A stretch of 64,000 nt of DNA from Solirubrobacterales bacterium (lineage in GTDB: Bacteria; Actinomycetota; Thermoleophilia; Solirubrobacterales; 70-9): positions 2,830 to 66,829 of the forward strand of contig DASSMM010000057.1 in the NCBI GenBank assembly GCA_035688825.1. Reading direction: 5' to 3'. Position numbers and translations under genes: made by a program. The notes under the pieces were generated by a model. It ran no database searches. It was not told the origin of the DNA and saw nothing but the letters and a program-made list of their open reading frames with translations. Shown in pieces: positions 1,503 through 41,072 of this stretch; the first letter of the stretch is position 1; every line of letters begins with the position of its first letter.

Positions 1503-4064
1503 TTACTCGTACTGCAAGGACTGCAGAACGTCCAGGCGCGATGCCTGGCGCGCCGGCAGGATCGCCGCGACCACCCCGATCACCGCAGCGACGACCAGCA
1601 GGAGGAGCAGCGTCCCGAGCGGATAGGAGAGGGTGAAGCCTTCGCTCTTCAGCGGCTGCGCAATCAGGGTGGCGAAGACGATGCCGAGGACCATCCCGAG
1701 GATCGCCCCGATCACCGCCGTGATCACCGCCTCGTAGCGGATCATCGTCCGCACCTGCCGCCGCGACATCCCGATCGCCCGCAGCATCCCCAGCTCCCGC
1801 GTGCGCTCGTGGATCGAGAGCGCCAGCGTGTTGGCGATGCCGAAGATCGAGATCAGGATCGCGAAGGCGAGCAGCACGATCACCAGCATCACCAGTTTGT
1901 TGATCGCGTTTTCGCGCTCTTCCTTCAGTTCTCCCTGGTTCAGCACTTCGGTCACCGGGAAGAGCCGTTCCGAACCGGCCGTCAGCAGCGTCTGCACCTT
2001 CGCTTCGTCGGCTCCTTCTTCGACCTTGACGAAGTCGAAGAGGTCCTGCGTCTGGCGGAAGTCGCGAGCCATCACCGCCTGGGTGACGAGGACGCTGCCG
2101 AGTACGCCGAGCTCCGATTCGAACTCGCCGACGACGCGGAAGCGCGGTCGCGCCCGCGTCTGCGTCAGCAAGTCGAAACTGTCGCCGAGTTCGAGATCGT
2201 GGGCGGAGGCGAAGTCGTCGGAGACGATCGCCTGCCGCCCGCTGAGCCGACGCAGCGCCGCCGGCCCGCCCTTCGTCCATTCGATATTCAGGGTCTCGCC
2301 GATGTCCCTGGTCGGCGCGTTGACCTGGACGGTGCCGCCGCCCGCCGCTCCCCCTTCGACCACCTTCGCCTGGGCACCGCGGATCGTCGCCACCAGCTCC
2401 ACCCCGGGAACCTTGCGCGCCGCCGCCGCCGCACCGTTCGGGATCGGCGAAAAGCCGTCGCTGTTCTGGATCACCAGGCCGCCGGCGAAGTTTTCGTCGA
2501 CGACCTGGGCGACCGTGCTCTTCAGGCCGGCGGCGAAGACGGTGACGAAGGTGACCAGGGCGAGGCCGATCATCAGCGCCGCCGCGGTGATCGCGGTGCG
2601 GCTCGGGTTGCGCTGCGCGTTCTCGCGGGCGAGGCGGCCGGTGAGCCGCCGCAGCCGCTCCAGCGGCCAGCCGGCGACGGTCGCCAGCGGCGGCACCAGC
2701 CGCGGGCTGAAGATCGAGACCGCGAGGACGACCACGACGGCGCCGCCGCCCATCAGGCCGGCCCGCTGTCCGGCGCTGCCGCTGCCGAGCAGGCCGATCA
2801 GCACCATTGCGACGCCGATCGCCGCGAGCAGGGTCGAGAGCACCAGGTAGACCAGGCGGCGGCGCCGCGTCGGCGCCGGGCTGAAGGCATGCAGGGCGGC
2901 CATCGGCGGCACCCGGGTCGAGCGCAGGGCGGGTACGAGGGAGGAGACCGTCGTTACCACCAGGCCGACGATCAGGGAAACGGCGACGGTGCGCGGCTCG
3001 AGCCGCAGGCTCGTGGTCGGCAGGTCGGCGCCGAAGGCTTCGAAGAGGACGTTGATCAGCTTGGCGATGACGAAGCCGCCGGCGATCCCGATCAGGGCGC
3101 CGAGCAGGCCGATCGCCAGCGCTTCGACAAGGACCGTGGTGAGGATCTGGCGGCGCGAGGCGCCGAGCGTTCGCAGCATCCCGAATTCGCTGATCCGCTG
3201 GGCGACCGTGATCGAGAAGGTGTTGAAGATCAGGAACGAGCCGACGAAGACGGCGATGAAGCCGAAGACGAGGAGGAAGGTCTTGAGGAAGCCGAGGCTT
3301 TCGCGGATTTCCTCCGAGGCGCGGTCGGCGCTTTCCTTCGCCGTCTCGACCTTGACCCCGGCCGGCATCTCCCGGGCGATCCGCCGTTTCAGCGTCTCCG
3401 GGGAGACGCCGTCGGCCGCCGCAACCGAGATCTGGTCGAAGCGGCCCACCTTGTGGGTCAGCCGCTGCGCCACCGGCAGCGTCACCTGGGCGATGCTGGC
3501 GCCGCCGAAGGAGGCGCTGCCGAGCTTGGTGAAGCCGACGAGGCGGAACTTCCGCGCTTTGCCCTGGCCGATCAGCTCGATCGGCTCTCCCAGCTTCAGG
3601 TCGCTTCCTTCTGCGGCCGCCTGGTCGATCGAGGCTTCGGTCGGCCCGCGCGGCTTGTGGCCTTCGACGTAGTTCAGCGACTCGAGGCCGTCCGGCAGGC
3701 CCGAGGAGATGAACTTCGGGGCGAATTTGTTGCCGATCTTTTCGCCTTCCCCGTCGAAGAAGGCGCCCGGGGTGAAGATCGCCCCTGCCGCGATCCGCAC
3801 CCCTCTCGTCTTCTGCACGGTCGGCAACACCGAGGCGCTGATCGTCGGGACTTCGCCGTTTTCCTGCTTGACCGGGTTCGCGGCGGTGATGACGACGCTG
3901 GTCCCGCTCAGCGACTCTTCGAAGATTTCGTCGAAGGCGGCGAAGATCGTGTCGGTGAGGACGTAGGAGCCGGCGACGAAGGCGACGCCGAGGACGACCG
4001 CGAAGGTCGTGGTCAGGGCGCGGACCTTGCGCGCCCAGAGGCTCTTGAGGCCGAGGCTAGTCAA
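1503..4064 (-). CDS. ABC transporter permease, FtsX/MacB-type with two FtsX domains
   Basis: 853 aa. N-terminal TM helix, large periplasmic-type domain, then 4-TM FtsX blocks twice (FNTFSITVAQRISEFGMLRTLGASRRQI and IANTLALSIHERTRELGMLRAIGMSRRQV). Overlaps the upstream ATPase gene by 8 nt. Confidence 0.9.
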   Translation of the reverse strand: MTSLGLKSLWARKVRALTTTFAVVLGVAFVAGSYVLTDTIFAAFDEIFEESLSGTSVVITAANPVKQENGEVPTISASVLPTVQKTRGVRIAAGAIFTPGAFFDGEGEKIGNKFAPKFISSGLPDGLESLNYVEGHKPRGPTEASIDQAAAEGSDLKLGEPIELIGQGKARKFRLVGFTKLGSASFGGASIAQVTLPVAQRLTHKVGRFDQISVAAADGVSPETLKRRIAREMPAGVKVETAKESADRASEEIRESLGFLKTFLLVFGFIAVFVGSFLIFNTFSITVAQRISEFGMLRTLGASRRQILTTVLVEALAIGLLGALIGIAGGFVIAKLINVLFEAFGADLPTTSLRLEPRTVAVSLIVGLVVTTVSSLVPALRSTRVPPMAALHAFSPAPTRRRRLVYLVLSTLLAAIGVAMVLIGLLGSGSAGQRAGLMGGGAVVVVLAVSIFSPRLVPPLATVAGWPLERLRRLTGRLARENAQRNPSRTAITAAALMIGLALVTFVTVFAAGLKSTVAQVVDENFAGGLVIQNSDGFSPIPNGAAAAARKVPGVELVATIRGAQAKVVEGGAAGGGTVQVNAPTRDIGETLNIEWTKGGPAALRRLSGRQAIVSDDFASAHDLELGDSFDLLTQTRARPRFRVVGEFESELGVLGSVLVTQAVMARDFRQTQDLFDFVKVEEGADEAKVQTLLTAGSERLFPVTEVLNQGELKEERENAINKLVMLVIVLLAFAILISIFGIANTLALSIHERTRELGMLRAIGMSRRQVRTMIRYEAVITAVIGAILGMVLGIVFATLIAQPLKSEGFTLSYPLGTLLLLLVVAAVIGVVAAILPARQASRLDVLQSLQYE

Positions 4065-4788
4065 GCCGCTTCTGCAGCTCGATCACCTCGTCCGCCGAGC
4101 CGGGGGCGGCGTCGCTGACGATCTTCCCGTCCTGGAGGGTGATGAGGCGGTCGGCGTGGGCGGCGGCGACCGGGTCGTGGGTGACCATCACCACCGTCTG
4201 GCCGAACTCGTCGACGGCCTGGCGCAGCAGCCGCAGCACGTCCTCGCTCGCTTTCGAGTCGAGGTTGCCGGTCGGCTCGTCGGCGAAGACCACCGCCGGT
4301 TTGCTGACCAGGGCGCGGGCGACCGCGACCCGCTGCTGCTGGCCGCCGGAGAGCTCGGCCGGGCGGTGCGTGCGCCGGTCCTCGAGGCCGACGGTGCGGA
4401 CGAGCTGGTCGACCCACTCCCGGTCGGGCTTGCGGCCGGCGATCGAGAGCGGCAGCACCAGGTTCTCCTCCGCCGTCAGCACCGGCAGCAGGTTGAAGAA
4501 CTGGAAGACGAAGCCGAGCTTGTCGCGGCGCAGCTCGGTCAGCTTCGAGTCGTCGAGCTTGGTGATGTCGACCCCGTCCAGCTCGACCGTGCCCGAGGTA
4601 GGCCGGTCGAGGCCGGCGAGGATGTGCATCAGCGTCGACTTGCCCGAGCCCGAGGGGCCCATGATCGCGGTGAAGCGATCGCGCTCGAAGAAGGTGGTGA
4701 CGCCGGCGAGCGCGTCGACGGCGGCGTCCCCTTCGCCGTAGCGGCGGTGAAGGTCGGTGGCAACCACGACTTGCCCGTTGACGCTCAC
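4057..4788 (-). CDS. ABC transporter ATP-binding protein (MacB/LolD-like)
   Basis: Walker A GPSGSGKST, Q-loop, signature LSGGQQQRVAVARAL, Walker B VVFADEPTGNLD, H-loop VTHD. Confidence 0.95.
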   Translation of the reverse strand: MSVNGQVVVATDLHRRYGEGDAAVDALAGVTTFFERDRFTAIMGPSGSGKSTLMHILAGLDRPTSGTVELDGVDITKLDDSKLTELRRDKLGFVFQFFNLLPVLTAEENLVLPLSIAGRKPDREWVDQLVRTVGLEDRRTHRPAELSGGQQQRVAVARALVSKPAVVFADEPTGNLDSKASEDVLRLLRQAVDEFGQTVVMVTHDPVAAAHADRLITLQDGKIVSDAAPGSADEVIELQKRLD

Positions 4789-4820
4789 TACCGGGCACCG
4801 TATCGAGCCAGGGAACTAGG

Positions 4821-5660
4821 GTGCGGACCGTGCCTCTCGCCGACCGCTTCGACGGACTCCTGATCGATCTCGACGGGGTGGTCTGGATCGGTCGCGAGCC
4901 GGTGCCGGGCTCGGTGGAGGCGCTGCAAGCGCTGCTGGCGGCCGGCAAGCGGATCGTCTTCGTCACCAACAACCCGGGGCGGCTGCCGCAGGCCTACGCC
5001 GAGCGGCTGCGGGAGCTCGGGGTCGAGGTCGGCCCGGAGCAGATCGTCACCGCCGGGATGGCGGTGGCGCGGCTGGCCGGAGAGGCCGCGGCGGCGGCGG
5101 GCGAGGGCGGCAGCGCCTTCGTGATCGGCGCCGGGCCTCTAAAGGAGATGGTGGCGGCGACGGGGGCGCGGCTGCTGGAGGGAGAAGAGGCTGAGGCAGC
5201 CGACGTGGTCGTCGTCTCCGGCCACAGAGGCTTCGACTACGGCGAGCTGAAGACGGCGAAGTTCGCCCTCGACCGCGGCGCCCGGCTCTTCGCCACCAGC
5301 CACGACCCGACGATGCCCTACCCGGGCGGCGAGCTGCCGGGGACCGGCGCGGTCCTGGCGGCGATCGAAGTCGCTTCCGGCAAGGGGGCGACGATCGCCG
5401 GCAAGCCCGAGCGCCACCTGTTCGAGATGGCGATCGAGACGATCCGCGGTTCCTTTTGCACCGATGACGTGCAAAAGGAACCGGGCGATGGACGTTTGGC
5501 GATGATCGGCGACCGGATCAGCTCCGACATCGACGGGGGGCGAGCCGCCGGGCTGGAGACCGTCCTCGTCCTCAGCGGCACCACCACGCGCGAGCAGGCG
5601 GAAGCGGCCGACCCCGGCCCCGACCACGTGCTCGACGACCTCGCCGCCCTGCTGAAGTGA
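4821..5660 (+). CDS. HAD-superfamily subfamily IIA hydrolase (NagD-like phosphatase)
   Basis: DxDG motif (LLIDLDGVVW), VFVTNN, GKPE, GDRISSDIDGG..GLETVLVLSG. Contains an in-frame palindromic insert at 5448..5482. Confidence 0.85.
   Translation: MRTVPLADRFDGLLIDLDGVVWIGREPVPGSVEALQALLAAGKRIVFVTNNPGRLPQAYAERLRELGVEVGPEQIVTAGMAVARLAGEAAAAAGEGGSAFVIGAGPLKEMVAATGARLLEGEEAEAADVVVVSGHRGFDYGELKTAKFALDRGARLFATSHDPTMPYPGGELPGTGAVLAAIEVASGKGATIAGKPERHLFEMAIETIRGSFCTDDVQKEPGDGRLAMIGDRISSDIDGGRAAGLETVLVLSGTTTREQAEAADPGPDHVLDDLAALLK
5448..5482. repeat. 35-bp perfect hairpin (14-bp arms) embedded in the HAD hydrolase coding sequence
   Basis: GGTTCCTTTTGCAC-cgatgac-GTGCAAAAGGAACC read directly from the sequence. 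It translates in frame as part of RGSFCTDDVQKEPG. Confidence 0.9.
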
Positions 5661-9387: not shown

Positions 9388-10659
9388 TCATCGCGCCGCG
9401 ATTCTTTCAGGCGCTCCGTACCGATGCAAAGTTTTGGGTAGCGTGAAACTGCCGTCGCTCTCCTGGCGGTTCTCGATCAGGGCGATGATCGTGCGCCCGA
9501 CGGCGCAGGCGGTGCCGTTCAGCGTGTGGACCGCCTGCGGTGCCGCGCCCTCCTCGGGGCGGTAGCGGGCGCCGATGCGGCGAGCCTGGAAGTCGGTGGT
9601 GTTCGAGCAGGAGGTGAGCTCGCGGAACCGGCCCTGGCTCGGGATCCACGCCTCGCAGTCGTACTTCTTCGCCGCCGGCGCGCCGAGGTCGCCGACGGCG
9701 ACGTTGACGACCCGGTAGGGGATCTCCAACTCGCCGAGGATCCGCTCCTCGATCGAGAGCAGCCGCTCGTGCTCCTGCTTCGAGGTGCCGGGCTCGACGA
9801 ACGAGAACATCTCGACCTTGTCGAACTGGTGGACCCGGAAGATGCCGCGGGTGTCGCGGCCGGCGGCGCCAGCCTCGCGGCGGAAGCAGGTCGAGAAGGC
9901 GCAGTAGCGCAGCGGCAGCTCGGCGGCGTCGAGGATCTCGCCGGCGTGGAGACCGGCGAGGGCGACCTCGGAGGTGCCGGTGAGGAAGAGCTCGTCCTTG
10001 GGAATCTCGTAGATCTGGTCGCGCGCCTCGGGCAGGAAGCCGGTTCCCTCCAGCGCCTCTTCGCGGACCAGCACCGGCGGCACCACCGGCTCGTGGCCCT
10101 CGCCGCGGACGAGGTCGATGACGAAGCGGACCAGCGCCAGCTCGAGCAGGACCAGGTCGCCCTTCAGGTAGGCGAAGCGCGAGCCGGAGAGCTCGGCCGC
10201 CTTCTCCATCTCGATCAGGCCGAGCTCGGTGCCGATCTCGAGGTGGTCGCGCGGCTCGAAGTCGAACTGCGGGCGCTCGCCGACCTCGCGGATCACGACT
10301 GCGTCCTCCTCGGTCATCCCTTCCGGCGCGTCGGGATCGGGGATGTTGGGAAGCGTCAGCGCCAGCTCTCCCAGCTTGGCGCCCACCTCCTCCAGCTCCT
10401 CTTTCGCCGACTCGACCCGCTCCTTCAGCCCCTGCACGGTCGCCATCAGCTCCTCGGCGTCTTCGCCGGCCTGCTTGCGTTCGCCGATCTGCTTGGAGAG
10501 CGTCTTGCGCTCGGCCTGCGCGTTCTCGACCTCCGGCAGCAGCTCGCGCCGGCGGGCGTCCAGGGCCAGCAGCTCGTCGACCTGCTCAGCCGCGCCCCGC
10601 CGCGCCAGCGCGGCCTTGACCCGCTCGGGGTCGGAGCGGATCGCTTTCAGGTCCAGCAT
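9388..10659 (-). CDS. serS: serine--tRNA ligase
   Basis: 423 aa. N-terminal coiled-coil arm MLDLKAIRSDPERVKAALARRG, and class II motifs (FRVHQFDKVEMF, CSNTTDFQARR, HTLNGTACAVGRTIIAL). Confidence 0.97.
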   Translation of the reverse strand: MLDLKAIRSDPERVKAALARRGAAEQVDELLALDARRRELLPEVENAQAERKTLSKQIGERKQAGEDAEELMATVQGLKERVESAKEELEEVGAKLGELALTLPNIPDPDAPEGMTEEDAVVIREVGERPQFDFEPRDHLEIGTELGLIEMEKAAELSGSRFAYLKGDLVLLELALVRFVIDLVRGEGHEPVVPPVLVREEALEGTGFLPEARDQIYEIPKDELFLTGTSEVALAGLHAGEILDAAELPLRYCAFSTCFRREAGAAGRDTRGIFRVHQFDKVEMFSFVEPGTSKQEHERLLSIEERILGELEIPYRVVNVAVGDLGAPAAKKYDCEAWIPSQGRFRELTSCSNTTDFQARRIGARYRPEEGAAPQAVHTLNGTACAVGRTIIALIENRQESDGSFTLPKTLHRYGAPERIAAR

Positions 10660-32635: not shown

Positions 32636-33641
32636 CCCGGGCCGCCGCTTCGGCGGCCTTTTCGGTGTCGGCTTCCTCCTGCGCCTCCCGGATCAGGCCG
32701 CGCCAGTCGGTGGTCCTGAAGACGAGCAGGATCGCGGCGAAGCCGAGGACGACCGACCAGGCCGCCATCGCGATCTGGGTGCCGACCGAGAAGGAGAGGA
32801 CGGCGGTGCGGGTCGGCCCGCTCAGGGTCGCCACCAGCAGCGCCTGCTGGGCGCCGGCGCCGCCGGGGGTGAAGGGGACGACGTTGGCGATCGCCTGGCA
32901 GCTCATCACCAGCATCACGTTGCCGATCGAGCCGTCGATCCCGAAGGCCTCGAGGAAGAACCAGAAGGCGGCGAAGCGGAAGATCCAGCCGAGCCCCTGC
33001 CAGGCGGCGACCTCGCGCAGGTAGCGGCGCGGCTCGGTGAGGATGACGAGGCCCTGGCGGACCCGCGCCCAGAAGCGGCGCACCCGGTGGGCGAGCAGGT
33101 AGATGGCGATCGCGATCGCCAGCAGCGTCACCCCGACGGCGATGAAGAAGAGGTTCGGGTGGTCGGCCCAGAAGGAGATCTCGAAGGCCGGCAGGTGCGG
33201 GATCTGCGGCAGCGGCGGCAGCAGCCCCTGGCTGATCGCGTAGAGGAGGACGAGCACCCCGACGGTGGTGTCGAAGACGGTCTGGACGAGGAAGGAGGAG
33301 GTGACCGCCGGGTAGGAGGAGTCTGGGATCTGGCGTTTGACCAGGAAGACCTTGGTCACGTCTCCCGCGTGCGCCGGCACCACCGCGTTGATCCCCGCCC
33401 CCGCCAGGTAGGCGGCGGCGAGCGGCAGGAAGGGGATCTTCTTGTCCGGGTAGGCGGCGCGGAGGACGTTGCGCCAGGCCCAGGCGCGGGCTAGCTGCAT
33501 GGCGAGCAGGCAGAGCAGGGCGATGCCGAAGGTGGTCCAGTGGACTTCCGAGAGGTGGCGGAAGAATTCGGCGGCCCGGTTGAAGAACGCTTCGAAGTTG
33601 TCGGCGAGATCGGCGAACGGCATCGCAGCTAGACTAGCCAC
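32625..33641 (-). CDS. flippase-like membrane protein (UPF0104 / lysyl-phosphatidylglycerol synthase TM-region family)
   Basis: 338 aa, 8 TM. AGAGINAVVPAHAGDVTKV and VVPFTPGGAGAQQALLV. Confidence 0.75.
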   Translation of the reverse strand: MASLAAMPFADLADNFEAFFNRAAEFFRHLSEVHWTTFGIALLCLLAMQLARAWAWRNVLRAAYPDKKIPFLPLAAAYLAGAGINAVVPAHAGDVTKVFLVKRQIPDSSYPAVTSSFLVQTVFDTTVGVLVLLYAISQGLLPPLPQIPHLPAFEISFWADHPNLFFIAVGVTLLAIAIAIYLLAHRVRRFWARVRQGLVILTEPRRYLREVAAWQGLGWIFRFAAFWFFLEAFGIDGSIGNVMLVMSCQAIANVVPFTPGGAGAQQALLVATLSGPTRTAVLSFSVGTQIAMAAWSVVLGFAAILLVFRTTDWRGLIREAQEEADTEKAAEAAARARP

Positions 33642-33645
33642 GCTC

Positions 33646-34635
33646 GTGCCCGACCCCGACGTGCAGGCGCTGCCTCAGACCCCCCTCTCCGATCCCGCTG
33701 ACAAGGCGATGTGCGACCGTGCCCGCGAGCGCTACACGGCCGATCGCAAGAGCCGCTGGCGGCGCCGCCGCAAACGCCACGCGCAGTTGCCGAACCTGAT
33801 CATCATCGGCGGGCTCAAGTGCGGGACGACGAGCATCCACCACTACCTCGGCCTGCATCCGGAAATCCAGATGTCGAAGCCGAAGGAGCTCAACTTCTTC
33901 GTCGAGGAGCTGAACTGGGACCTCGGGCTCGACTGGTACGCGAGCCGCTTCGACGACCGCTTCGAGGTCCGCGGCGAGTCCTCTCCGCACTACACCAACC
34001 TGCCCCGGTTCACGGGGGTGCCGGAGCGGATCAAGCAGCACTGCCCCGACGCGCGGCTGCTCTACATGGTGCGCGACCCGATCAAGCGGATCCTCTCGCA
34101 CTGGGTGCACGCGACCGGCGCCGGCTACGAGACCGGTGACCTGGTCGAGGTCCTCTCCAACCCCGACACCTCTTACATGAACCGCTCGAAGTACTGGATG
34201 CAGCTACAGCCCTACCTCGAGCACTTCGACCGCGAGCAGATCACTCTGATCACCCAGGAGGAGCTGCACACCGAACGCGAAGCGACGATGCGCAAGGCAT
34301 TCGCCTTCGCCGGCGTCGACGACGGCTTCACCTCCGAGCAGTTCGACCGCGAGTGGGAGAAGTCGAGCGCGAAGGAAGGCGACAAATACCAGCTGATGGA
34401 GAAGCTGGTGAAACTGCCCGGCTTCCGCTCCTTCGACCGCAACTTCGACCGCCTGCCCGAGTCGATGCGCTGGCTGGTCGAGAAGGTCGTCCACGACCCG
34501 GAGAAGCCGCCGGCCCCGAAGCCGAAGCTCCCTGACGACCTCTTCGAGACGGTCCGCGGCCGCTTCACCGAGGACGTCGCCGAACTGCAGAAGTTCGCCG
34601 GCCGCGAGTTCGCCGGCTGGCACGACTACTCCTGA
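33646..34635 (+). CDS. sulfotransferase family protein
   Basis: 5'-PSB motif LIIIGGLKCGTTSIHHYL and 3'-PB-like YMVRDPIKRILSHWVH. Start placed at GTG 33646 (ATG near 33709 is also possible). The track ORF N-terminus overlaps the divergent gene. Confidence 0.85.
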   Translation: MPDPDVQALPQTPLSDPADKAMCDRARERYTADRKSRWRRRRKRHAQLPNLIIIGGLKCGTTSIHHYLGLHPEIQMSKPKELNFFVEELNWDLGLDWYASRFDDRFEVRGESSPHYTNLPRFTGVPERIKQHCPDARLLYMVRDPIKRILSHWVHATGAGYETGDLVEVLSNPDTSYMNRSKYWMQLQPYLEHFDREQITLITQEELHTEREATMRKAFAFAGVDDGFTSEQFDREWEKSSAKEGDKYQLMEKLVKLPGFRSFDRNFDRLPESMRWLVEKVVHDPEKPPAPKPKLPDDLFETVRGRFTEDVAELQKFAGREFAGWHDYS

Positions 34636-34640
34636 AGTAG

Positions 34641-34673
34641 CGGGCGGGCCGGTGGGTGGCACCGGCCCGCCCT
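34641..34673 (+). terminator. GC-rich hairpin after the sulfotransferase gene
   Basis: CGGGCGGGCCGGTG-ggtgg-CACCGGCCCGCCC, 6 nt after the stop. Could act bidirectionally for the convergent mini-ORF. Confidence 0.55.
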
Positions 34674-34681
34674 GTCCCTCC

Positions 34682-34760
34682 CTAGTTCGTCTTGCTGGTG
34701 GAAAGTGCCGGGTACACCGGGGTGGTCTTAGTGATGGTCACGCCGCTTCACCTCCTTCCC
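34682..34760 (-). repeat. ~78-bp conserved element, copy 1, containing SD plus an intact 19-codon mini-ORF (34682..34741)
   Basis: Minus strand: GGAAGGAGGTGAAGCGGC GTG ACC ATC ACT AAG ACC ACC CCG GTG TAC CCG GCA CTT TCC ACC AGC AAG ACG AAC TAG = MTITKTTPVYPALSTSKTN. About 64 of 78 positions are identical to 39353..39430 by hand alignment. Confidence 0.6.
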
Positions 34761-34789
34761 TCAGGTCACGGCCGAGACCACCTGGACTA

Positions 34790-34811
34790 TTACTGGACGT
34801 CCGTCCAGTAA
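34790..34811. promoter_or_regulatory. 9-bp inverted repeat between the mini-ORF and the divergent ArsR-like gene (candidate operator)
   Basis: TTACTGGAC-gtcc-GTCCAGTAA read directly from the sequence. Confidence 0.4.
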
Positions 34812-34890
34812 CGGTCGGAATGAGAAATTGCATTAGCCAATTGCTCGGATACTCTGCATTGATGACCGCACCTGAACCGGAGGTTCGACG

Positions 34891-35523
34891 ATGAGCAAAA
34901 GTCGGAGCAAGGGGGCAGCGCCCGCCAAGAGTCACCGCCCGGAGTCAGGGGGGAGCTTCGGCAGGCCGGGGCACGATCAGCTCGTCAAAGGTCTCAGCCA
35001 CCCGGTGCGGATCGAATGCCTGACCATCCTCACCAAGCAGGTCGCCAGCCCAAGGCAGCTCTCGGAAATCCTCGACCACGACCTCAGCAACATCAGCTAC
35101 CACGTCCGGACCCTGGTCGAGCTCGGCTTGGTCGAGCTGGTCGGCGAAGAGCCGGTCCGTGGAGCGGTCGCGCATTTCTACAAAGCGGTGGAACGGCCTC
35201 TGCTGGCCAACGCCGAATGGGTGCAGCTCCCTTCCTCGGTTCGGCAGATGATCTCCGTCTACAGCTGGGACATCCTGCTCAAGGATGCGACCGAATCGAT
35301 CGAGAAGGGCGCCTTCGACAGCCGCTCGGACCGCCACCTGACCCGGACCAGGCTGCTGCTCGACTCCGAGGGCTTCAACCGCCTCAGCAAGCTGATGGAC
35401 GAGCTCCTGGAAGAGGTGCTGTCCGAGCAGGCCGCCGCCGCCGAACGGATGAGCAAGTCAGGTGAGAAGCCGATCCATGCGGTCGCCGCGACGGCGCTTT
35501 TCCCGATGCCGACGCCGGAATAG
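34891..35523 (+). CDS. ArsR-type winged-helix transcriptional regulator with C-terminal extension
   Basis: LSHPVRIECLTILTKQVASPRQLSEILDHDLSNISYHVRTLVELGLVELV is the ArsR HTH pattern. Visibly lower GC3 than the neighbouring genes. Confidence 0.7.
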   Translation: MSKSRSKGAAPAKSHRPESGGSFGRPGHDQLVKGLSHPVRIECLTILTKQVASPRQLSEILDHDLSNISYHVRTLVELGLVELVGEEPVRGAVAHFYKAVERPLLANAEWVQLPSSVRQMISVYSWDILLKDATESIEKGAFDSRSDRHLTRTRLLLDSEGFNRLSKLMDELLEEVLSEQAAAAERMSKSGEKPIHAVAATALFPMPTPE

Positions 35524-35574
35524 AGCTTTCGCCTTCGCGGACTAAAGCCGCACCGACGGGGTAGCCTCGGCTCG

Positions 35575-36255
35575 ATGCGGCGGCTTCTCCCGGATCCCGG
35601 GCCGACCTCTGTCTCCGAGCAGCTGGAGGCCTACCGGCCCTGGGAGGAAGCGCCGGAGGACCGGCCGCTGGTGGGGATGAACTTCGTCGCCACCGTCGAC
35701 GGGCGGGCGACTATCGGGGGGCGTTCCGGGCCGATCGGCTCCGACGCCGACACGGCGATGCTGGTCGGGCTGCGGAAGCGCTTCGAGGCGGTGATGATCG
35801 GCGCGGGGACGATGCGGGTCGAGCGCTACGGGCCGATGGAGCCGCTGCTGGTGCTGGTCAGCGGGCGGCTCGACCTCCCCTGGGACGCTCCGCTCTTCAG
35901 CCAGGAGGGCGCCGAGATCCTCGTCTTCACCGCTGCGGAGACCGAGCCGCCGGAGACGGCGGCGACGGTGGAGGTGGTGCGGCACGAGGGCGCGGTGAAC
36001 CTGCGCGAGGCGCTGAGGCACCTGCGACGGGAGCGCGGCATCCGCGCCCTGCTCTCCGAGGGCGGGCCGCACCTGCACGCGCAGATGCAGGCCGACGGGC
36101 TGGTCGACGACCTCTTCCTGACGATCGCGCCGAAGCTGAGCGGCGGCGAGGGGCCGCGGATCCTCGAGGGACCGCTCCCCGACGTGGTCGGCCTCGAGCT
36201 CGCCTGGCTGCTGGAGGAGGACGGCGAGCTCTTCGCCCGCTACCGGCGGAGCTGA
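35575..36255 (+). CDS. RibD C-terminal domain (dihydrofolate-reductase-like) protein
   Basis: VATVDGRATIGGRSGPIGSDAD...VMIGAGTMRVE...LSEGGPHLHAQMQADGLVDDLFLTIAPKLSG. Confidence 0.8.
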   Translation: MRRLLPDPGPTSVSEQLEAYRPWEEAPEDRPLVGMNFVATVDGRATIGGRSGPIGSDADTAMLVGLRKRFEAVMIGAGTMRVERYGPMEPLLVLVSGRLDLPWDAPLFSQEGAEILVFTAAETEPPETAATVEVVRHEGAVNLREALRHLRRERGIRALLSEGGPHLHAQMQADGLVDDLFLTIAPKLSGGEGPRILEGPLPDVVGLELAWLLEEDGELFARYRRS

Positions 36256-36272
36256 GCCCGGCGAGCCGATAG

Positions 36273-36305
36273 CGTTCCCTCTCCCAGAGGACGAGGAGAG
36301 GAACG
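36273..36305 (+). promoter_or_regulatory. hairpin that pairs with the acyl-CoA dehydrogenase ribosome-binding site
   Basis: CGTTCCCTCTCC-cagaggacga-GGAGAGGAACG ends 1 nt before ATG 36307. It could instead be the terminator of the upstream gene. Confidence 0.4.
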
Positions 36306-36306
36306 A

Positions 36307-37569
36307 ATGGACTTCAACCCCAGCCCCGAGGTCGCCGAGCTGCGCGAGCGCGTGCTCGACTTCATGGACGCGGAGATCTACCCGCAGGAGCGGGAGATCA
36401 TGGAAGCGCTCGACGAGGAGGTCGGCGCCGGCGTCCCCTACCCGCAGAACCTGACCGCGGTCCGCGAGAAGGCGAAGGCCGACGGCCTCTGGAACCTGTT
36501 CATGCCCGACGAGCGCTTCGGGCCGGGGCTGACGAACTGGGAGTACGGGCTGCTCTGCGAGGAGATGGGTCGCAGCCCGATGGCGGCGCCGATGGCCTTC
36601 AACTGCTCGGCGCCGGACACCGGCAACATGGAGATCCTCGCCGAGCACGGGACCGCCGAACAGCGCGAGCGCTGGCTCGAGCCGCTGCTCGAGGGCCGGA
36701 TCCGCTCGTGCTTCTCGATGACCGAGCCCGAGGTCTCCGGCTCGGACCCGACGCTGCTGCAGGCGAAGGCGACCCTCGACGGCGACGAGTGGGTCGTCGA
36801 GGGGCACAAGTGGTTCACCTCCGGCGCCGTCGGCGCCGACCTGGCGATCGCGATGGTCGTCACCGACCCCGACGCCCACCCCTACGGCCGCGCCTCGATG
36901 ATCTGCGTCCCCACCGACACCCCCGGCTTCAACCTGGTGCGGCCGATCTCGGTGATGGGCCACGACGGCGGTCCCGGCCACTGCGAGATCCGCTACGAAG
37001 AATGCCGGGTGCCGAAGGGGTTCCTGCTCGGCGAGCGCGGCGCCGGCTTCGCGATCGCCCAGGACCGGCTCGGCCCGGGGCGCATCCACCACTGCATGCG
37101 GGCGATCGGGACCGCCGAGCGGGCCCACGAGATGATGTGCCGTCGCGCCAACGAACGCAGCGCCTTCGGCGGCCCGCTGGGCGAGAAGCAGTTCGTCCAG
37201 GAGTCGATCGCCGCCAGCCGGATGGAGATCGACCAGGCCCGCCTACTCACCCTCTACGCCGCCTGGAAGATGGACACCGAGGGCAAGCGCGCCGCCCGCC
37301 AGGCGATCTCGGCGATCAAGATCGTCGCCGCCAACATGGTGATGGACGTTCTCGACCGCGCGATCCAGGTCCACGGCTCCCTCGGCATGACCGACGACAC
37401 CCCCCTGGCGATCATGTGGCGCTTCTCCCGCATGCTCCGCCTCGCCGACGGCCCCGACGAGGTCCACAAAATGGTCCTCGCCCGCCGCGAGCTCAACCGC
37501 TGGTCCAAGCGCGCCGAGGCCGAAGCCGAAGGCAACCTGGAGCCGCGGCACGCGGCGCGGATGGTCTAG
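36307..37569 (+). CDS. acyl-CoA dehydrogenase
   Basis: 420 aa. CFSMTEPEVSGSDPT, KWFTSGA, IHHCMRAIG, QVHGSLGMTDDTPL. Belongs to the ACAD family clade that is usually paired with an APH kinase. Confidence 0.95.
   Translation: MDFNPSPEVAELRERVLDFMDAEIYPQEREIMEALDEEVGAGVPYPQNLTAVREKAKADGLWNLFMPDERFGPGLTNWEYGLLCEEMGRSPMAAPMAFNCSAPDTGNMEILAEHGTAEQRERWLEPLLEGRIRSCFSMTEPEVSGSDPTLLQAKATLDGDEWVVEGHKWFTSGAVGADLAIAMVVTDPDAHPYGRASMICVPTDTPGFNLVRPISVMGHDGGPGHCEIRYEECRVPKGFLLGERGAGFAIAQDRLGPGRIHHCMRAIGTAERAHEMMCRRANERSAFGGPLGEKQFVQESIAASRMEIDQARLLTLYAAWKMDTEGKRAARQAISAIKIVAANMVMDVLDRAIQVHGSLGMTDDTPLAIMWRFSRMLRLADGPDEVHKMVLARRELNRWSKRAEAEAEGNLEPRHAARMV
37472..37569 (+). repeat. 98-nt direct repeat, copy 1 (functional 3' end of the acyl-CoA dehydrogenase gene)
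   Basis: Identical to 39436..39533 except one internal mismatch and the stop codon (TAG vs TGA), i.e. 95 of 98 by hand. Confidence 0.95.
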
Positions 37570-37742
37570 CCGACCGTCACACGGGATACTGGCTGACTGA
37601 CTCGCTCGGCGGGACGACGTCGCCGAACCATCGAAGTGCTCCGGTCGGCCGCCAACCGGCACGACTACAGCTGACCCATTGCCCTCGTCCGCCGCCAGGG
37701 GTAGCGTCGGCATAGTTAAGATTTTCTCAGTGAAGGGATGAA

Positions 37743-39272
37743 ATGCGTTCCCGACGGATTTTGGCCATAGTCGCAGTGTCCCTCTTTTCGGTCTGCATGG
37801 TGCCCACTGCCAGCGCAGCAGTTACCTACCTTCGACCCAACGTCGATCAGCCGTCCCTGAAAGAACCCTGGCTCGTGGTAGGGGCGCCTACGGCCTGGGC
37901 ATCCCTTGACGACAACCTCACGGAGTCCGAAGCGCCAGCCGCCAGTGAGTACATCTCCGCACCCCATGACGGGATGGATCGGATTGTGGGCTTGGAAACG
38001 ATGGCAATCGCAGGCGCCTCAGCCATCACTATGCAGGCGTGGTTCTACTCGGAAACTGCGAACAGCGTCATCCTGGAAGTTCTCAGGACTCCGACCTCCG
38101 GAACGGTGGCGAGCGGAACCTTTGCCACTGCTGGTTGGCATTCACTGCCATTGCCGGCAATAACTCAGTCGGAACTAGACAATTTGGTTCTTCGATTTCG
38201 GACCACGACCGGCCATTCGCACATCGTTCAGGCATCGTTCGTCAAGGTCAGCTACACCCCCTCCCCGGCCAAGGTTTACTGGGGAGCCGATATGGACGGG
38301 GAAGTCGCAAATCTGGAACGAGATTCTTTGGGAAATCCCCTCCCCGTCCGCCTCGACGCGCCTTGGACGCAAGAAACCTGGGATCTGTTCGAGCAGCATG
38401 CCGGCAAGCCCGTCTCGATTGTTCACTTCGGCCAGCCGGCACCTTGGAACCAAAGCTTTGCTGCCAGCCCGCTTGAACTGACGAGCGCCCGCGGCGCCAT
38501 TCCGATGATCTCAATGGGAAGCATCGGCGCCACCTTGTCCGAACTGGAAGAAGGAGGCGTTAAAGAAAGCGCGCTTGCTAAATGGGCGCAGGAAGTGGCC
38601 AAATATCAAAAGCCCTTCTTCCTCCGCTGGGACTGGGAGATGAACCTGCCGAGTTCTACTTCCCTCTTGTGGGTCAATGAAGCCCACAGCAATCCCGCCG
38701 CATTCGTCCGTGCTTGGCGGAACTTTCACCGGATCGCCGAGCGCGAAGGGGCGTCCAACATCACTTGGGTCTGGTGCCCCAACGTCAGCTTCCTCGGTTC
38801 GACCTCGCTCAAATCCCTCTACCCCGGAAACTCCTATGTCGACTGGACCTGCATGGATGGCTACAACTTCGGGACCATGCCTGGAGGAAGCGGCTGGAAG
38901 AGCTTCAGTAACGTGTTCTCCTCAACCTATGCCGAACTGACGTCGTCTGACTTTGATGGCCGTGCAAAGCCGATCATGGTCGGGGAGACGGCATCCACCG
39001 AGCAAGGTGGCTCAAAGCCTGACTGGATTGCCCAAGCGCTGGGAACCTCCATGCCGGATAGCTTCCCGAAGATCAAAGCACTGGTCTGGTTCAACTGGAA
39101 TATCACTGAGAACGGCTTTGAACACGACTGGCCGATCGAGTCTCCGGTCACGACTCCCTCGGGGCCTTCACCGTCCGCCGCAGCCTTTGCCAATGCGATC
39201 TCTTCGCCCTATTACGCCGGAAACACCTTCGGCAGTTTGGCGCCACTGACCCGGATCCAGCCACTGCCCTAG
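37743..39272 (+). CDS. secreted glycoside hydrolase, GH26-like (beta-mannanase-type) catalytic domain with unknown N-terminal domain
   Basis: Signal peptide MRSRRILAIVAVSLFSVCMVPTASA. FFLRWDWEMN (acid/base Glu context), YPGNSYVDWTCMDGYN, PIMVGETAS (nucleophile Glu context). RBS gaaggga. Confidence 0.7.
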   Translation: MRSRRILAIVAVSLFSVCMVPTASAAVTYLRPNVDQPSLKEPWLVVGAPTAWASLDDNLTESEAPAASEYISAPHDGMDRIVGLETMAIAGASAITMQAWFYSETANSVILEVLRTPTSGTVASGTFATAGWHSLPLPAITQSELDNLVLRFRTTTGHSHIVQASFVKVSYTPSPAKVYWGADMDGEVANLERDSLGNPLPVRLDAPWTQETWDLFEQHAGKPVSIVHFGQPAPWNQSFAASPLELTSARGAIPMISMGSIGATLSELEEGGVKESALAKWAQEVAKYQKPFFLRWDWEMNLPSSTSLLWVNEAHSNPAAFVRAWRNFHRIAEREGASNITWVWCPNVSFLGSTSLKSLYPGNSYVDWTCMDGYNFGTMPGGSGWKSFSNVFSSTYAELTSSDFDGRAKPIMVGETASTEQGGSKPDWIAQALGTSMPDSFPKIKALVWFNWNITENGFEHDWPIESPVTTPSGPSPSAAAFANAISSPYYAGNTFGSLAPLTRIQPLP

Positions 39273-39352
39273 GTACCGCGCCTGCAGATCTTCCGCCTTG
39301 GGTCCGCAGCGACCGGGGCGACCGTGACTGGCGGCAAGCCCCTCTCCTACTA

Positions 39353-39430
39353 CTAGTTAGTCCTGCTGGCGAAAAGTGCCGGGTATACCGGATGGTCTTA
39401 CTGATGGCCATACCGCTTTACCTCATGTGG
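39353..39430 (-). repeat. ~78-bp conserved element, copy 2 (mini-ORF disrupted by a 1-nt deletion)
   Basis: Minus strand: TGAGGTAAAGCGGT ATG GCC ATC AGT AAG ACC AT-C CGG... Restoring one nucleotide gives MAISKT.PVYPALFASRTN*. As it stands it reads through as track ORF 39148..39411. Confidence 0.6.
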
Positions 39431-39435
39431 CGCAG

Positions 39436-39533
39436 TGGTCCTCGCCCGCCGCGAGCTCAACCGCTGGTCCAAGCGCGCCGAGGCCGAAGCCGAAGGCAAC
39501 CTGGAGCCCCGGCACGCGGCGCGGATGGTCTGA
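39436..39533 (+). pseudogene. displaced 3' remnant of the acyl-CoA dehydrogenase gene (direct repeat copy 2)
   Basis: Encodes ...VLARRELNRWSKRAEAEAEGNLEPRHAARMV*, identical in protein sequence to the last 32 codons of 36307..37569. It has no upstream gene body. Confidence 0.85.
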
Positions 39534-39610
39534 AGAAAAAAGGGTCGGCGAGAGCTGGCCCTTGATGTTTCTGCAGATCCTTGGCTAAAGGATCGTGGCG
39601 TTCAGCCAGT

Positions 39611-39635
39611 ACCAACAGGGTGTTGGTGTCTTTTT
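39611..39635 (+). terminator. rho-independent terminator downstream of the ACAD remnant
   Basis: ACCAACA-ggg-TGTTGGT followed by gtcTTTTT. A second hairpin, GATCCTT-ggcta-AAGGATC, lies at 39576..39594. Confidence 0.6.
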
Positions 39636-39684
39636 CGGGAGCGAGGCCCAGGAAGGCGCCATGAACTTGGGTGGATCTAGCCTG

Positions 39685-40128
39685 TCAGCGACCCGGGTCG
39701 CTGCGAGCGCCTTGAGTTTCGGCGGCTCCTGCTGCCCGCTCCGGATCGCTGGGCGGAACGTTTGGGGCCGTCGTCGAATCGGCCGAGCTAGAGCGCTGCG
39801 GATCGGTTGGCTCCGTCGCTGGCTGCTGTGAGTCGTTCGAAGGCTCCTTCGCCTTCTTCGGGCTGGACTGCGCCTTCTGCCGGTCGTCGCCTGAGGCGTG
39901 TTCGCTCGTCTCTTTTTGCTGGCCCGACTGCTGCTTCCTCCTCGTTGCCGGACGAGCTTGACTGGCGGTCGCTTCGGCTTTGGCCTTTTCAGCCGCTGAA
40001 GCCTTCGTCCTGCCGGTGTCCGGTCTCGTGGTGTCGGTACCGCCCGAGCTGCCGCATCCGACCATGACCACCACGACACACGCGACAAGCAAGATCGGCT
40101 TGTGGCGCAACGGGGTCAGCTTGAACAT
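39685..40128 (-). CDS. low-complexity lipoprotein
   Basis: ATG 40128 gives MFKLTPLRHKPILLVACVVVVMVGCGSS (lipobox), followed by an Ala/Lys/Glu/Ser/Pro-rich tail. The rest of track ORF 39685..40569 overlaps the upstream gene. Confidence 0.55.
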   Translation of the reverse strand: MFKLTPLRHKPILLVACVVVVMVGCGSSGGTDTTRPDTGRTKASAAEKAKAEATASQARPATRRKQQSGQQKETSEHASGDDRQKAQSSPKKAKEPSNDSQQPATEPTDPQRSSSADSTTAPNVPPSDPERAAGAAETQGARSDPGR

Positions 40129-40195
40129 CGATCTAATCTGGAAAGAAGAGGAGGGCCGGAGTCCGGCCCTCCTCTTACAAATTGCCCGTCCCGAC

Positions 40196-40930
40196 TTACC
40201 AGAGGACGAGGAAGAACTCTTCTTCCGTCGCTTCGTCGAGACCGCTGTCCCACATTTCAACTTCGACATCGGTCCCAGGCGGGCACTCTTCGAAACTTTC
40301 TTCCGCTCCGGCGATGAGGACGCTCGGGAAGTCGTTGCCTTCCCCGTCAGCCTCACCAGTGGCCTGCGCGTGCAGGACCGGGAACGGCGTGTCGAAGCAG
40401 TAGGACCCGCCTTCGACCGTGGCGTTGGTGATGCCGCCTTGGGTGAAGTCCGTATCCACGGTGCCGTCGAATTCAACCAGCGCGAACGCCTTCGGCAGCA
40501 GCACGCCTTCGGCGAGGTTGCTCCGACTAACGCCTCCGGCAGCGATCTTGTCGCTGGTGACCGCTCCATTGGCCAACTTCTCGTTAGTGACCGAACCGTT
40601 GGCCAGCTTGCCGGAGTTCACCGAGCTGGATCCGAGCTTCTCGTTCGTCACCGCCCCGTTCGCCAGCTTGTCGGTGGTGACCGAGCCGGCACCGATCGTC
40701 ACAGCTCCTGGGGCGAGCTTTTCGGCCGTCACGGCTCCGTTCTTGAGCTTCGGCGTGGTGACGGCGTTGTTCTTGATTTTGGCGGCGGTTACCGCGTTCT
40801 TCTTCAGCTGCTTGCTGCCGACGGTGTTCTTACCGAGGGCGGCAAAGGCGGTCGCACCACCAATCACCAAGAAGACTGCGATCGAGGACATCACGTTGGC
40901 GTACGTGAGCCGCTTACTTATCTGCTTCAC
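40196..40930 (-). CDS. membrane-anchored protein with about ten 11-residue NGAVTxxKLxx repeats
   Basis: GTG 40930 preceded by AAGGAGCC. N-terminal TM segment SSIAVFLVIGGATAFAAL, then the repeats, then a C-terminal acidic domain. Confidence 0.65.
   Translation of the reverse strand: MKQISKRLTYANVMSSIAVFLVIGGATAFAALGKNTVGSKQLKKNAVTAAKIKNNAVTTPKLKNGAVTAEKLAPGAVTIGAGSVTTDKLANGAVTNEKLGSSSVNSGKLANGSVTNEKLANGAVTSDKIAAGGVSRSNLAEGVLLPKAFALVEFDGTVDTDFTQGGITNATVEGGSYCFDTPFPVLHAQATGEADGEGNDFPSVLIAGAEESFEECPPGTDVEVEMWDSGLDEATEEEFFLVLW
40495..40831 (-). repeat. 33-nt periodic coding repeat array
   Basis: Successive units of the form GTGACC/GTCACC...GCCAGCTTG encode KNAVTAAKIKN / NAVTTPKLKNG / AVTAEKLAPG / SVTTDKLANG / AVTNEKLGSS / SVNSGKLANG / SVTNEKLANG / AVTSDKIAAG. 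Confidence 0.8.
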
Positions 40931-41072
40931 GGATGAGGCTCCTTACGAGTTGAGGACGAAGCACAAGGAAACGCGAATACCGACATTCCCTCTAGTTAGG
41001 TCAGGTTTACCGACCCTTTCAGGCGCGCCGGACGAAGTCAACCGCAAAAGACGAGCAAACTAGCTAGGAGCT

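Follow-up and report, generated by a model that had tools for sequence, protein, structure and literature searches.

The 64,000-nucleotide stretch of Solirubrobacterales DNA analysed here (hereafter the window) contains a short element that occurs twice on the minus strand and encloses a tiny open reading frame, and the question it raises is whether this is a translated gene or a structural repeat. The first-pass annotation, made from the letters alone, had argued for translation and had also described the element as a 78-bp marker of island borders. Its reading of the letters proved largely accurate when we read them directly: both copies lie where it had placed them, copy 1 running from GTG to TAG over 19 codons with a Shine-Dalgarno site 9 nt upstream, and copy 2 having a GAGGT, an ATG and a 1-nt deletion in codon 7 (Table 1). 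We give a probability of about 0.72 to the following explanation as a whole: copy 1 is a micro-gene that forms a module with a divergently transcribed regulator gene, modules of this kind constitute a family, and copy 2 is a decayed duplicate of copy 1.

Table 1. Features of the micro-gene module, its second copy and their surroundings (positions are those of the window)
Feature	Position	Strand	Remarks
13-bp G+C-rich hairpin between the stops of the micro-gene and the convergent sulfotransferase gene	34642..34672		Fold prediction
Micro-gene, copy 1	34682..34741	minus	GTG 34739-34741, 19 codons, TAG 34682-34684; read directly
Shine-Dalgarno site GGAAGGAGG of copy 1	34751..34759	minus	9-nt spacer to GTG
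Short hairpin just upstream of the Shine-Dalgarno site	34764..34779	minus	Palindrome I2; in the presumed 5' untranslated region (transcript position inferred)
Inverted repeat, 15-nt arms, 2-nt spacer	34785..34816		Candidate operator; overlaps the likely -10 of the micro-gene promoter
Partner regulator gene, 210 aa	34891..35523	plus	ArsR-type winged helix and two long C-terminal helices
GH26-like gene, lower GC	37743..39272	plus	Pfam GH26 9.4e-7; GC 0.55-0.62; context of copy 2, outside the module
Copy 2, putative decayed orphan duplicate of copy 1 (pseudogene)	39353..39430	minus	84% identical to copy 1
Duplicate of the last 96 nt of the acyl-CoA dehydrogenase gene	39436..39531	plus	Original 37472-37567; direct repeat D2, 99% identical

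Copy 1 and copy 2 are 84% identical across about 73 nt. Their similarity spans the Shine-Dalgarno site through the stop codon, vanishing outside the former and leaving mere traces past the latter. In a search of the whole assembly (2.06 Mb in 76 contigs) copy 1 retrieved itself with E = 1.6e-41 and copy 2 with E = 4.3e-15, every further match having an E of 0.3 or worse, and in the window a sequence model built from the orthologs found the two copies and nothing else (E = 8e-24 and 1e-9). The repeat exceeds chance, and these are the sole two such copies in the genome. A DNA search of relatives with copy 1 was insensitive, with one true match, and was replaced by searches with the neighbouring genes and by the sequence model. 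Thirty loci of the same genus were retrieved via the neighbouring sulfotransferase gene, and 14 of them have a 19-codon ORF that matches copy 1 in place and orientation; the model search contributed 3 more orthologs (n = 17). All 17 are exactly 19 codons long with neither an indel nor a stop, each with a GGAGGTGA-type Shine-Dalgarno site 5' of the ORF and a G+C-rich hairpin 3' of its stop. The GGAGGTG core of the Shine-Dalgarno site is invariant in an alignment of 13 orthologs, and the paralogs are led by a site of the same type. Among the 17 orthologs there is variation at every codon position, strongest at the third, and the pooled pN/pS is 0.60 overall, falling from 0.87 in codons 2-10 to 0.36 in codons 11-19. 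These values indicate that the C-terminal half of the peptide is under purifying selection and that codons 2-10 evolve almost neutrally. Read directly, the peptide and its relatives are polar and rich in threonine, serine and lysine, with no hydrophobic stretch of membrane length and no signal sequence. Copy 1 thus appears, from its pattern of conservation, to be a stand-alone translated gene for a 19-residue microprotein of cytoplasmic type that has never been annotated.

Copy 1 and the regulator gene are divergent, with their start codons 149 nt apart, and the same layout recurs in orthologs and paralogs. At the sulfotransferase site each of the 14 loci that carry the micro-gene has a divergent regulator homolog 150-210 nt away, and none of the 16 that lack it does; in these 16 the RibD_C and acyl-CoA dehydrogenase genes come immediately after the sulfotransferase gene. 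This co-occurrence strongly suggests that copy 1 and the winged-helix regulator form a two-gene module. The 16 module-less genomes form one clade in a tree of sulfotransferase DNA (SH-aLRT 89) and hence a single gain or loss explains the pattern; a mobile cassette with repeated gain and loss was rejected on the same tree, in which one change suffices. Thus, the module seems to have been inherited vertically at this site and long retained. Of the 151 genomes of the genus, 148 have the sulfotransferase gene itself, with or without the module (this tally, that of the micro-gene model matches and the comparison with the closest relatives include the unpublished genome G128, on which none of the specific claims depends). 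The RibD_C gene downstream of the regulator (35575-36255) is 57-90% identical between species, unlike the sulfotransferase and the dehydrogenase, which stay at 87-97%.

The regulator is matched by the Pfam models HTH_20 (8.8e-9) and HTH_5 (1.3e-6), and otherwise by a winged helix of the MarR_2 type alone. Its AlphaFold model (pLDDT 79) predicts two long C-terminal helices, 115-138 and 159-190, with a conserved loop (residues about 139-158) between them. Structurally it comes closest to Kfla_6221 (4G6Q; Foldseek E = 5.7e-7), PH1932 (1ULY/2CWE; profile E = 6e-9) and the Pyrococcus heat-shock regulator Phr (2P4W), and the profile also matches many ArsR/SmtB structures. An NCBIfam metalloregulator model scored 30.8 bits, below its cut-off of 55. 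An alignment of 13 regulator paralogs and orthologs contains no conserved cysteine, the single one of this regulator not being kept in the paralogs, and the protein is therefore unlikely to be a classical metal sensor. Invariant or nearly so in this alignment are His37, Arg40, Ser53, His71, Leu75, Glu82, Tyr97, Asp158, Gly161, Arg186 and Phe204.

The intergenic region that holds the micro-gene had looked empty, and several signals can be recognized in it. 1) The inverted repeat occurs at the same place in 17 of 17 orthologs, with clade-specific half-sites; a simple inverted-repeat search of the intergenic regions of paralogs gave candidates in 10 of 17 only. 2) On the strand of the regulator gene, boxes resembling -35 and -10 elements are kept in the 17 orthologs. 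3) A second clade of orthologs has a stem of different letters at the position of the short hairpin 34764-34779. 4) A hairpin 3' of the stop is common to the orthologs and paralogs of the micro-gene, and the predicted hairpin at 34642-34672 is likely to be the terminator of both the micro-gene and the sulfotransferase gene. A scan for consensus promoters and terminators found no textbook example of either, as expected for high-GC DNA, and it missed this hairpin because the latter has no T-tail. In four RNA runs coverage was confined to the conserved sulfotransferase end of relatives, which adjoins the micro-gene. The transcript of copy 1 is probably monocistronic and would measure about 130 nt, with a 5' hairpin, a very strong Shine-Dalgarno site, the 19 codons and the terminator hairpin.

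Copy 2 preserves the outline of a micro-gene with GAGGT at 39420-39424, ATG at 39409-39411 and, in the old frame, TAG at 39353-39355, and a base missing near 39391 (seventh codon) causes a frameshift. The frame of the ATG runs into an 87-codon arginine-rich ORF (39148-39411), and direct reading of the old-stop frame shows a TAA and no later start codon. Counted by codon, copy 2 differs from copy 1 by a start-codon change, 2 synonymous changes, 5 replacements and 1 frameshift, and the earlier description of the differences as mostly synonymous or conservative does not survive this count: two of the replacements, Ser14 to Phe and Lys17 to Arg, hit the two most conserved residues of the family. 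The Shine-Dalgarno site is shortened to GAGGT and weakened, the terminator is eroded by indels, and no partner regulator, operator or promoter was found upstream. Copy 2 is 83.6% identical to copy 1 of its own genome and at most 71% to the orthologs of other species. It therefore looks like a non-functional duplicate of that copy 1 which has since decayed. Hence, the claim of a translated micro-gene stands for copy 1, on its 17 orthologs, and falls for copy 2, which has the frameshift, the changed Ser14 and Lys17 and no regulator.

The 5' edge of copy 2 is abutted by the duplicate of the acyl-CoA dehydrogenase 3' end, 5 nt from its Shine-Dalgarno site. The closest relatives lack copy 2 and have the dehydrogenase 3' end just once, which makes the junction a lineage-specific rearrangement scar rather than a marker beside an att-like duplication, as it had first been read. 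A local rearrangement would have left copy 2 behind, fused to the duplicated dehydrogenase end, and the orientation and order of the two, with the micro-gene first and the dehydrogenase 3' end second, would fit a duplicate of the segment 34682-37569 minus its interior. Divergence is 16% between the micro-gene copies and 1% between the dehydrogenase 3' copies, a mismatch that a single duplication event cannot explain and that would call for two events, gene conversion or an assembly problem. The GH26-like gene, which the 96-nt direct repeat of the dehydrogenase 3' end brackets (37472-39533), also follows the dehydrogenase gene in the closest relatives, where it is syntenic and 48-53% identical, its flanking genes being 93-97% identical there. 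Its family has up to 8 copies per genome, and the region looks like a fast-evolving or exchanged cassette. Further along, in a second lower-GC block, a minus-strand ORF shows a 30-nt tandem periodicity at 40547-40696 (repeat family D1); it encodes a repeat-containing surface-type protein with no Pfam match.

The micro-gene has many relatives. The sequence-only model (R1) gave matches in 129 of 151 genomes of the genus, often several per genome. We inspected 37 matches outside the sulfotransferase site together with three candidate loci of the present genome: nearly all are Shine-Dalgarno-led 19-codon ORFs, a few having 18 or 20 codons, with a hairpin after the stop. A divergent regulator homolog accompanies 18 matches in a batch of 20 loci from other genomes. 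The present genome encodes about 10 full-length regulator paralogs, 7 of them each facing a divergent micro-gene of its own (18-20 codons). Five genomes of the genus, each of which consists of a single contig (2.6-2.8 Mb), have 9-22 regulators apiece; among the 30 best-scoring regulators of these five complete genomes 19 carry a micro-gene ORF, as against 2% of random 590-nt windows. The family extends to a second genus of the same family and to a second family of Solirubrobacterales, where the peptides have 20-21 residues. Across all of these the N-terminus reads Met, Lys or Thr, and an aliphatic residue, the middle is variable within a length of 18 to 21 residues, and the C-terminal part, counted from the C-terminus, has Pro at -9, usually Ser at -6, and Lys at -3. 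No family in Pfam or NCBIfam matched the peptide. The earlier statement that it resembles no family is thus right for the curated libraries and wrong in a wider sense, as the peptide appears to belong to a large unannotated family. About a third of the regulator paralogs have no detectable micro-gene, and in most other genera those homologs of the regulator that were sampled have none either, so that the regulator is able to function with no peptide. Together these distributions point to a lineage-specific expansion, within the Solirubrobacterales, of a large and unannotated family of regulator-coupled microproteins.

The surroundings of the modules differ from one to the next. Of the genes that follow the micro-gene in the 7 modules of the present genome, 5 are convergent with it, 1 is co-directional and 1 has an unclear direction (orientations were taken from Pfam-supported ORFs where possible, as a GC3-based gene caller missed many genes of the low-GC islands), and the neighbours are unrelated: a sulfotransferase, a cupredoxin, a STAS protein, SfLAP, PHP, an XRE regulator and a methyltransferase. 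With the next gene mostly convergent and the neighbours unrelated, a leader peptide is disfavoured and so is a local maturase; the modules are autonomous. They lie in the lowest 1-8% of the genome's GC windows, with the exception of a tandem regulator copy on contig C17 (30th percentile). Several loci depart from the simple layout. In genome G082 an intact 18-codon micro-gene (L075 4520-4576, minus) directly follows the acyl-CoA dehydrogenase gene and is divergent from an ORF of about 207 aa (4699-5322, plus); the presence of a second module after this gene suggests that the spot attracts such modules. Contig C50 (about 10370-10600; L140 about 3570-3800) apparently has two tandem micro-genes, of 20 and 18 codons and both with a Thr-Lys-Gly-Thr end, upstream of one regulator paralog. 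Tandem arrays of 2-4 regulator genes in which we detected no micro-gene occur on C17 (51183-52352) and on contig C1 of genome G153 (440955-443390). Lastly, a Shine-Dalgarno-led 19-codon ORF on contig C31 (35910-35969; L074 3001-3060) has Pro-11 and Lys-17 as in the family, but its neighbour encodes a cupin instead of a winged-helix regulator; either an orphan family member or a match by chance could account for it.

As to how such a module might work, we propose that a dimer of the regulator binds the inverted repeat at 34785-34816 and, given the overlap with the micro-gene promoter, would set the expression of the peptide, probably by repression. The peptide would then most likely feed back on its own regulator, as ligand or partner, the two forming a small switch; alternatively it would act on another target. 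The peptide's own role is the weakest step of this mechanism: action on the cognate regulator is a tentative reading that we place somewhat below even odds, and another target, a toxin-like role included, we regard as rather unlikely. A bolder form of the first reading, which we consider unlikely as it stands, is that the modules are a lineage-specific and greatly enlarged set of cognate peptide-receptor switches in which unprocessed ligands of about 19 residues are read by repressors of the PH1932/Kfla_6221 type, perhaps as exported signals with residues 2-10 diversifying in the manner of pherotypes. If true, this would be ribosomal-peptide signalling in Actinomycetota with a receptor whose fold is not known to sense peptides encoded by genes.

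Two precedents make action of the peptide on its own regulator feasible. LugJ, which has been modelled on 4G6Q, is a repressor on an inverted repeat that is released by the peptide lugdunin (PMC11980582). The predicted fold of our regulator, a winged helix with long C-terminal helices, is that of Kfla_6221, PH1932, Phr and LugJ, at a sequence identity of about 20%; none of those is known to pair with a micro-gene, and the LugJ ligand, unlike the present peptide, is a non-ribosomal cyclic peptide from a large gene cluster. RopB-LCP and Rgg-SHP are peptide/receptor pairs of the RRNPP type in Firmicutes (PMC10518010, PMC10075063), and in the RopB-LCP case the peptide is the unprocessed product of an ultrasmall ORF divergent from the receptor gene (PMC10518010). 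With both pairs our modules share 1) a tiny ORF that has its own ribosome-binding site and promoter and is divergent from the gene of an intracellular DNA-binding regulator, and 2) the organization as autonomous two-gene units with several fast-diverging paralogous pairs per genome; with LCP they further share the lack of a classical signal sequence in the peptide. They differ in that the receptor is a winged helix of the ArsR/PH1932 type with coiled-coil helices rather than an XRE-HTH with a TPR domain, in that the peptide is polar and has 18-21 residues as against hydrophobic peptides of 8-23, and in the host, which belongs to the Actinomycetota (Thermoleophilia) instead of the Firmicutes, with export, re-import and binding being putative. 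Membership in a LugJ-type or RopB-LCP family hence fails on receptor architecture.

Arrangements of this shape are also known from metal homeostasis, where in divergons of the SmtB-SmtA type an ArsR/SmtB repressor controls a divergent gene for a small protein. The likeness lies in an ArsR-family repressor gene placed back-to-back with a very small gene, with a candidate operator between them; unlike SmtB-SmtA, the peptide here has no conserved cysteine or histidine and the regulator no conserved metal site, so that metal sensing or binding is unlikely. Among regulatory arrest peptides, those of the TnaC type likewise come from a short ORF with conserved residues at fixed distances from its stop codon. 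A cis-acting sensor or arrest peptide would mean that translation only parks the ribosome at the stop beside the terminator hairpin, controlling read-through or the stability of its own RNA, and that the peptide has no function in trans. The placement of the Pro, Ser and Lys relative to the stop codon, with length varying in mid-peptide, would suit such a role, as would the start of the hairpin a few bases past the stop in nearly all copies and a peptide that, from what is known of TnaC-type arrest peptides, fits wholly within the ribosomal exit tunnel. Unlike in a TnaC-type leader or attenuator, there is usually no co-directional downstream gene here, and the convergence of 5 of 7 next genes leaves nothing obvious to read through; all three stop codons (TAG, TAA and TGA) are used with no preference, and the N-terminal residues are conserved as well. 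We therefore hold this reading to be distinctly improbable. The same grading, roughly, fits a toxin- or addiction-type module in which the peptide harms a cellular target and the regulator silences its gene. That would explain the many paralogous two-gene modules per genome, their low GC and the decay of the orphan copy; regulators without a peptide exist, and the only orphan peptide gene of this genome is broken. It sits poorly with a polar peptide that, read directly, has no membrane segment and is unlike the hydrophobic type I toxins, with genes that are divergent and not an operon, with a search for regulator homologs in plasmids and phages that gave no match, and with a module whose history at the sulfotransferase site points to vertical inheritance after a single gain or loss.

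Whether the ORF might be incidental to a non-coding repeat, such as a protein-binding site (CCGG...CCGG), a small RNA or the end of a mobile element, has to be weighed against the coding pattern described above. The element is present twice and beside lower-GC DNA, copy 2 is recognizable despite its frameshift, and Rfam offers PtaRNA1 as its sole match in 33000-41000; we rejected the last, which at 22.8 bits stays below the gathering score of 47 (E = 0.48). The symmetric site, which the first-pass annotation had itself named as an alternative, was rejected on the loss of the CCGG...CCGG symmetry in several orthologs, and RNAalifold detected neither a consensus structure over the ORF (-0.9 kcal/mol) nor any covarying pair. 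The substitutions are patterned by codon, and as regards random frameshifts or stops in relatives, which the annotation had named as evidence against coding, more than 50 further copies keep frame and length. An att site or island-border marker was likewise rejected, since the other island borders of this genome carry no copies and no integrase or transposase lies nearby; the supposed border element is rather one half of a regulator/microprotein module. A non-coding repeat is thus very improbable. We give still less credence to a RiPP precursor, for instance one whose tyrosine is sulfated by the product of the convergent gene, even though 46 nt separate the end of this PAPS-type sulfotransferase gene from the micro-gene stop and copy 1 has one tyrosine, flanked by proline. 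Among orthologs that position is Phe, Ile, Cys or Tyr, and the sulfotransferase occurs across the genus regardless of the module; on these two counts peptide sulfation was rejected. Moreover, the paralogous modules share no maturase amid their unrelated neighbours, and the C-terminal residue of the peptide varies.

For the window, the regulator/microprotein reading explains an intergenic region that had seemed empty, and the second copy becomes merely a scar. The real finding is an undescribed family of regulator-coupled microproteins. Gene finders are blind to genes of 19 codons, and the family is missing from every annotation of these abundant and mostly uncultured soil actinobacteria, in one genus of which a genome has about 10-20 such regulator genes, roughly two thirds of them with a private micro-gene. 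This points to an unstudied layer of gene control. If the peptides are ligands of their regulators, peptide-based switching would extend beyond the Firmicutes and the RRNPP receptor fold, and the modules would represent compact, orthogonal repressor/peptide pairs.
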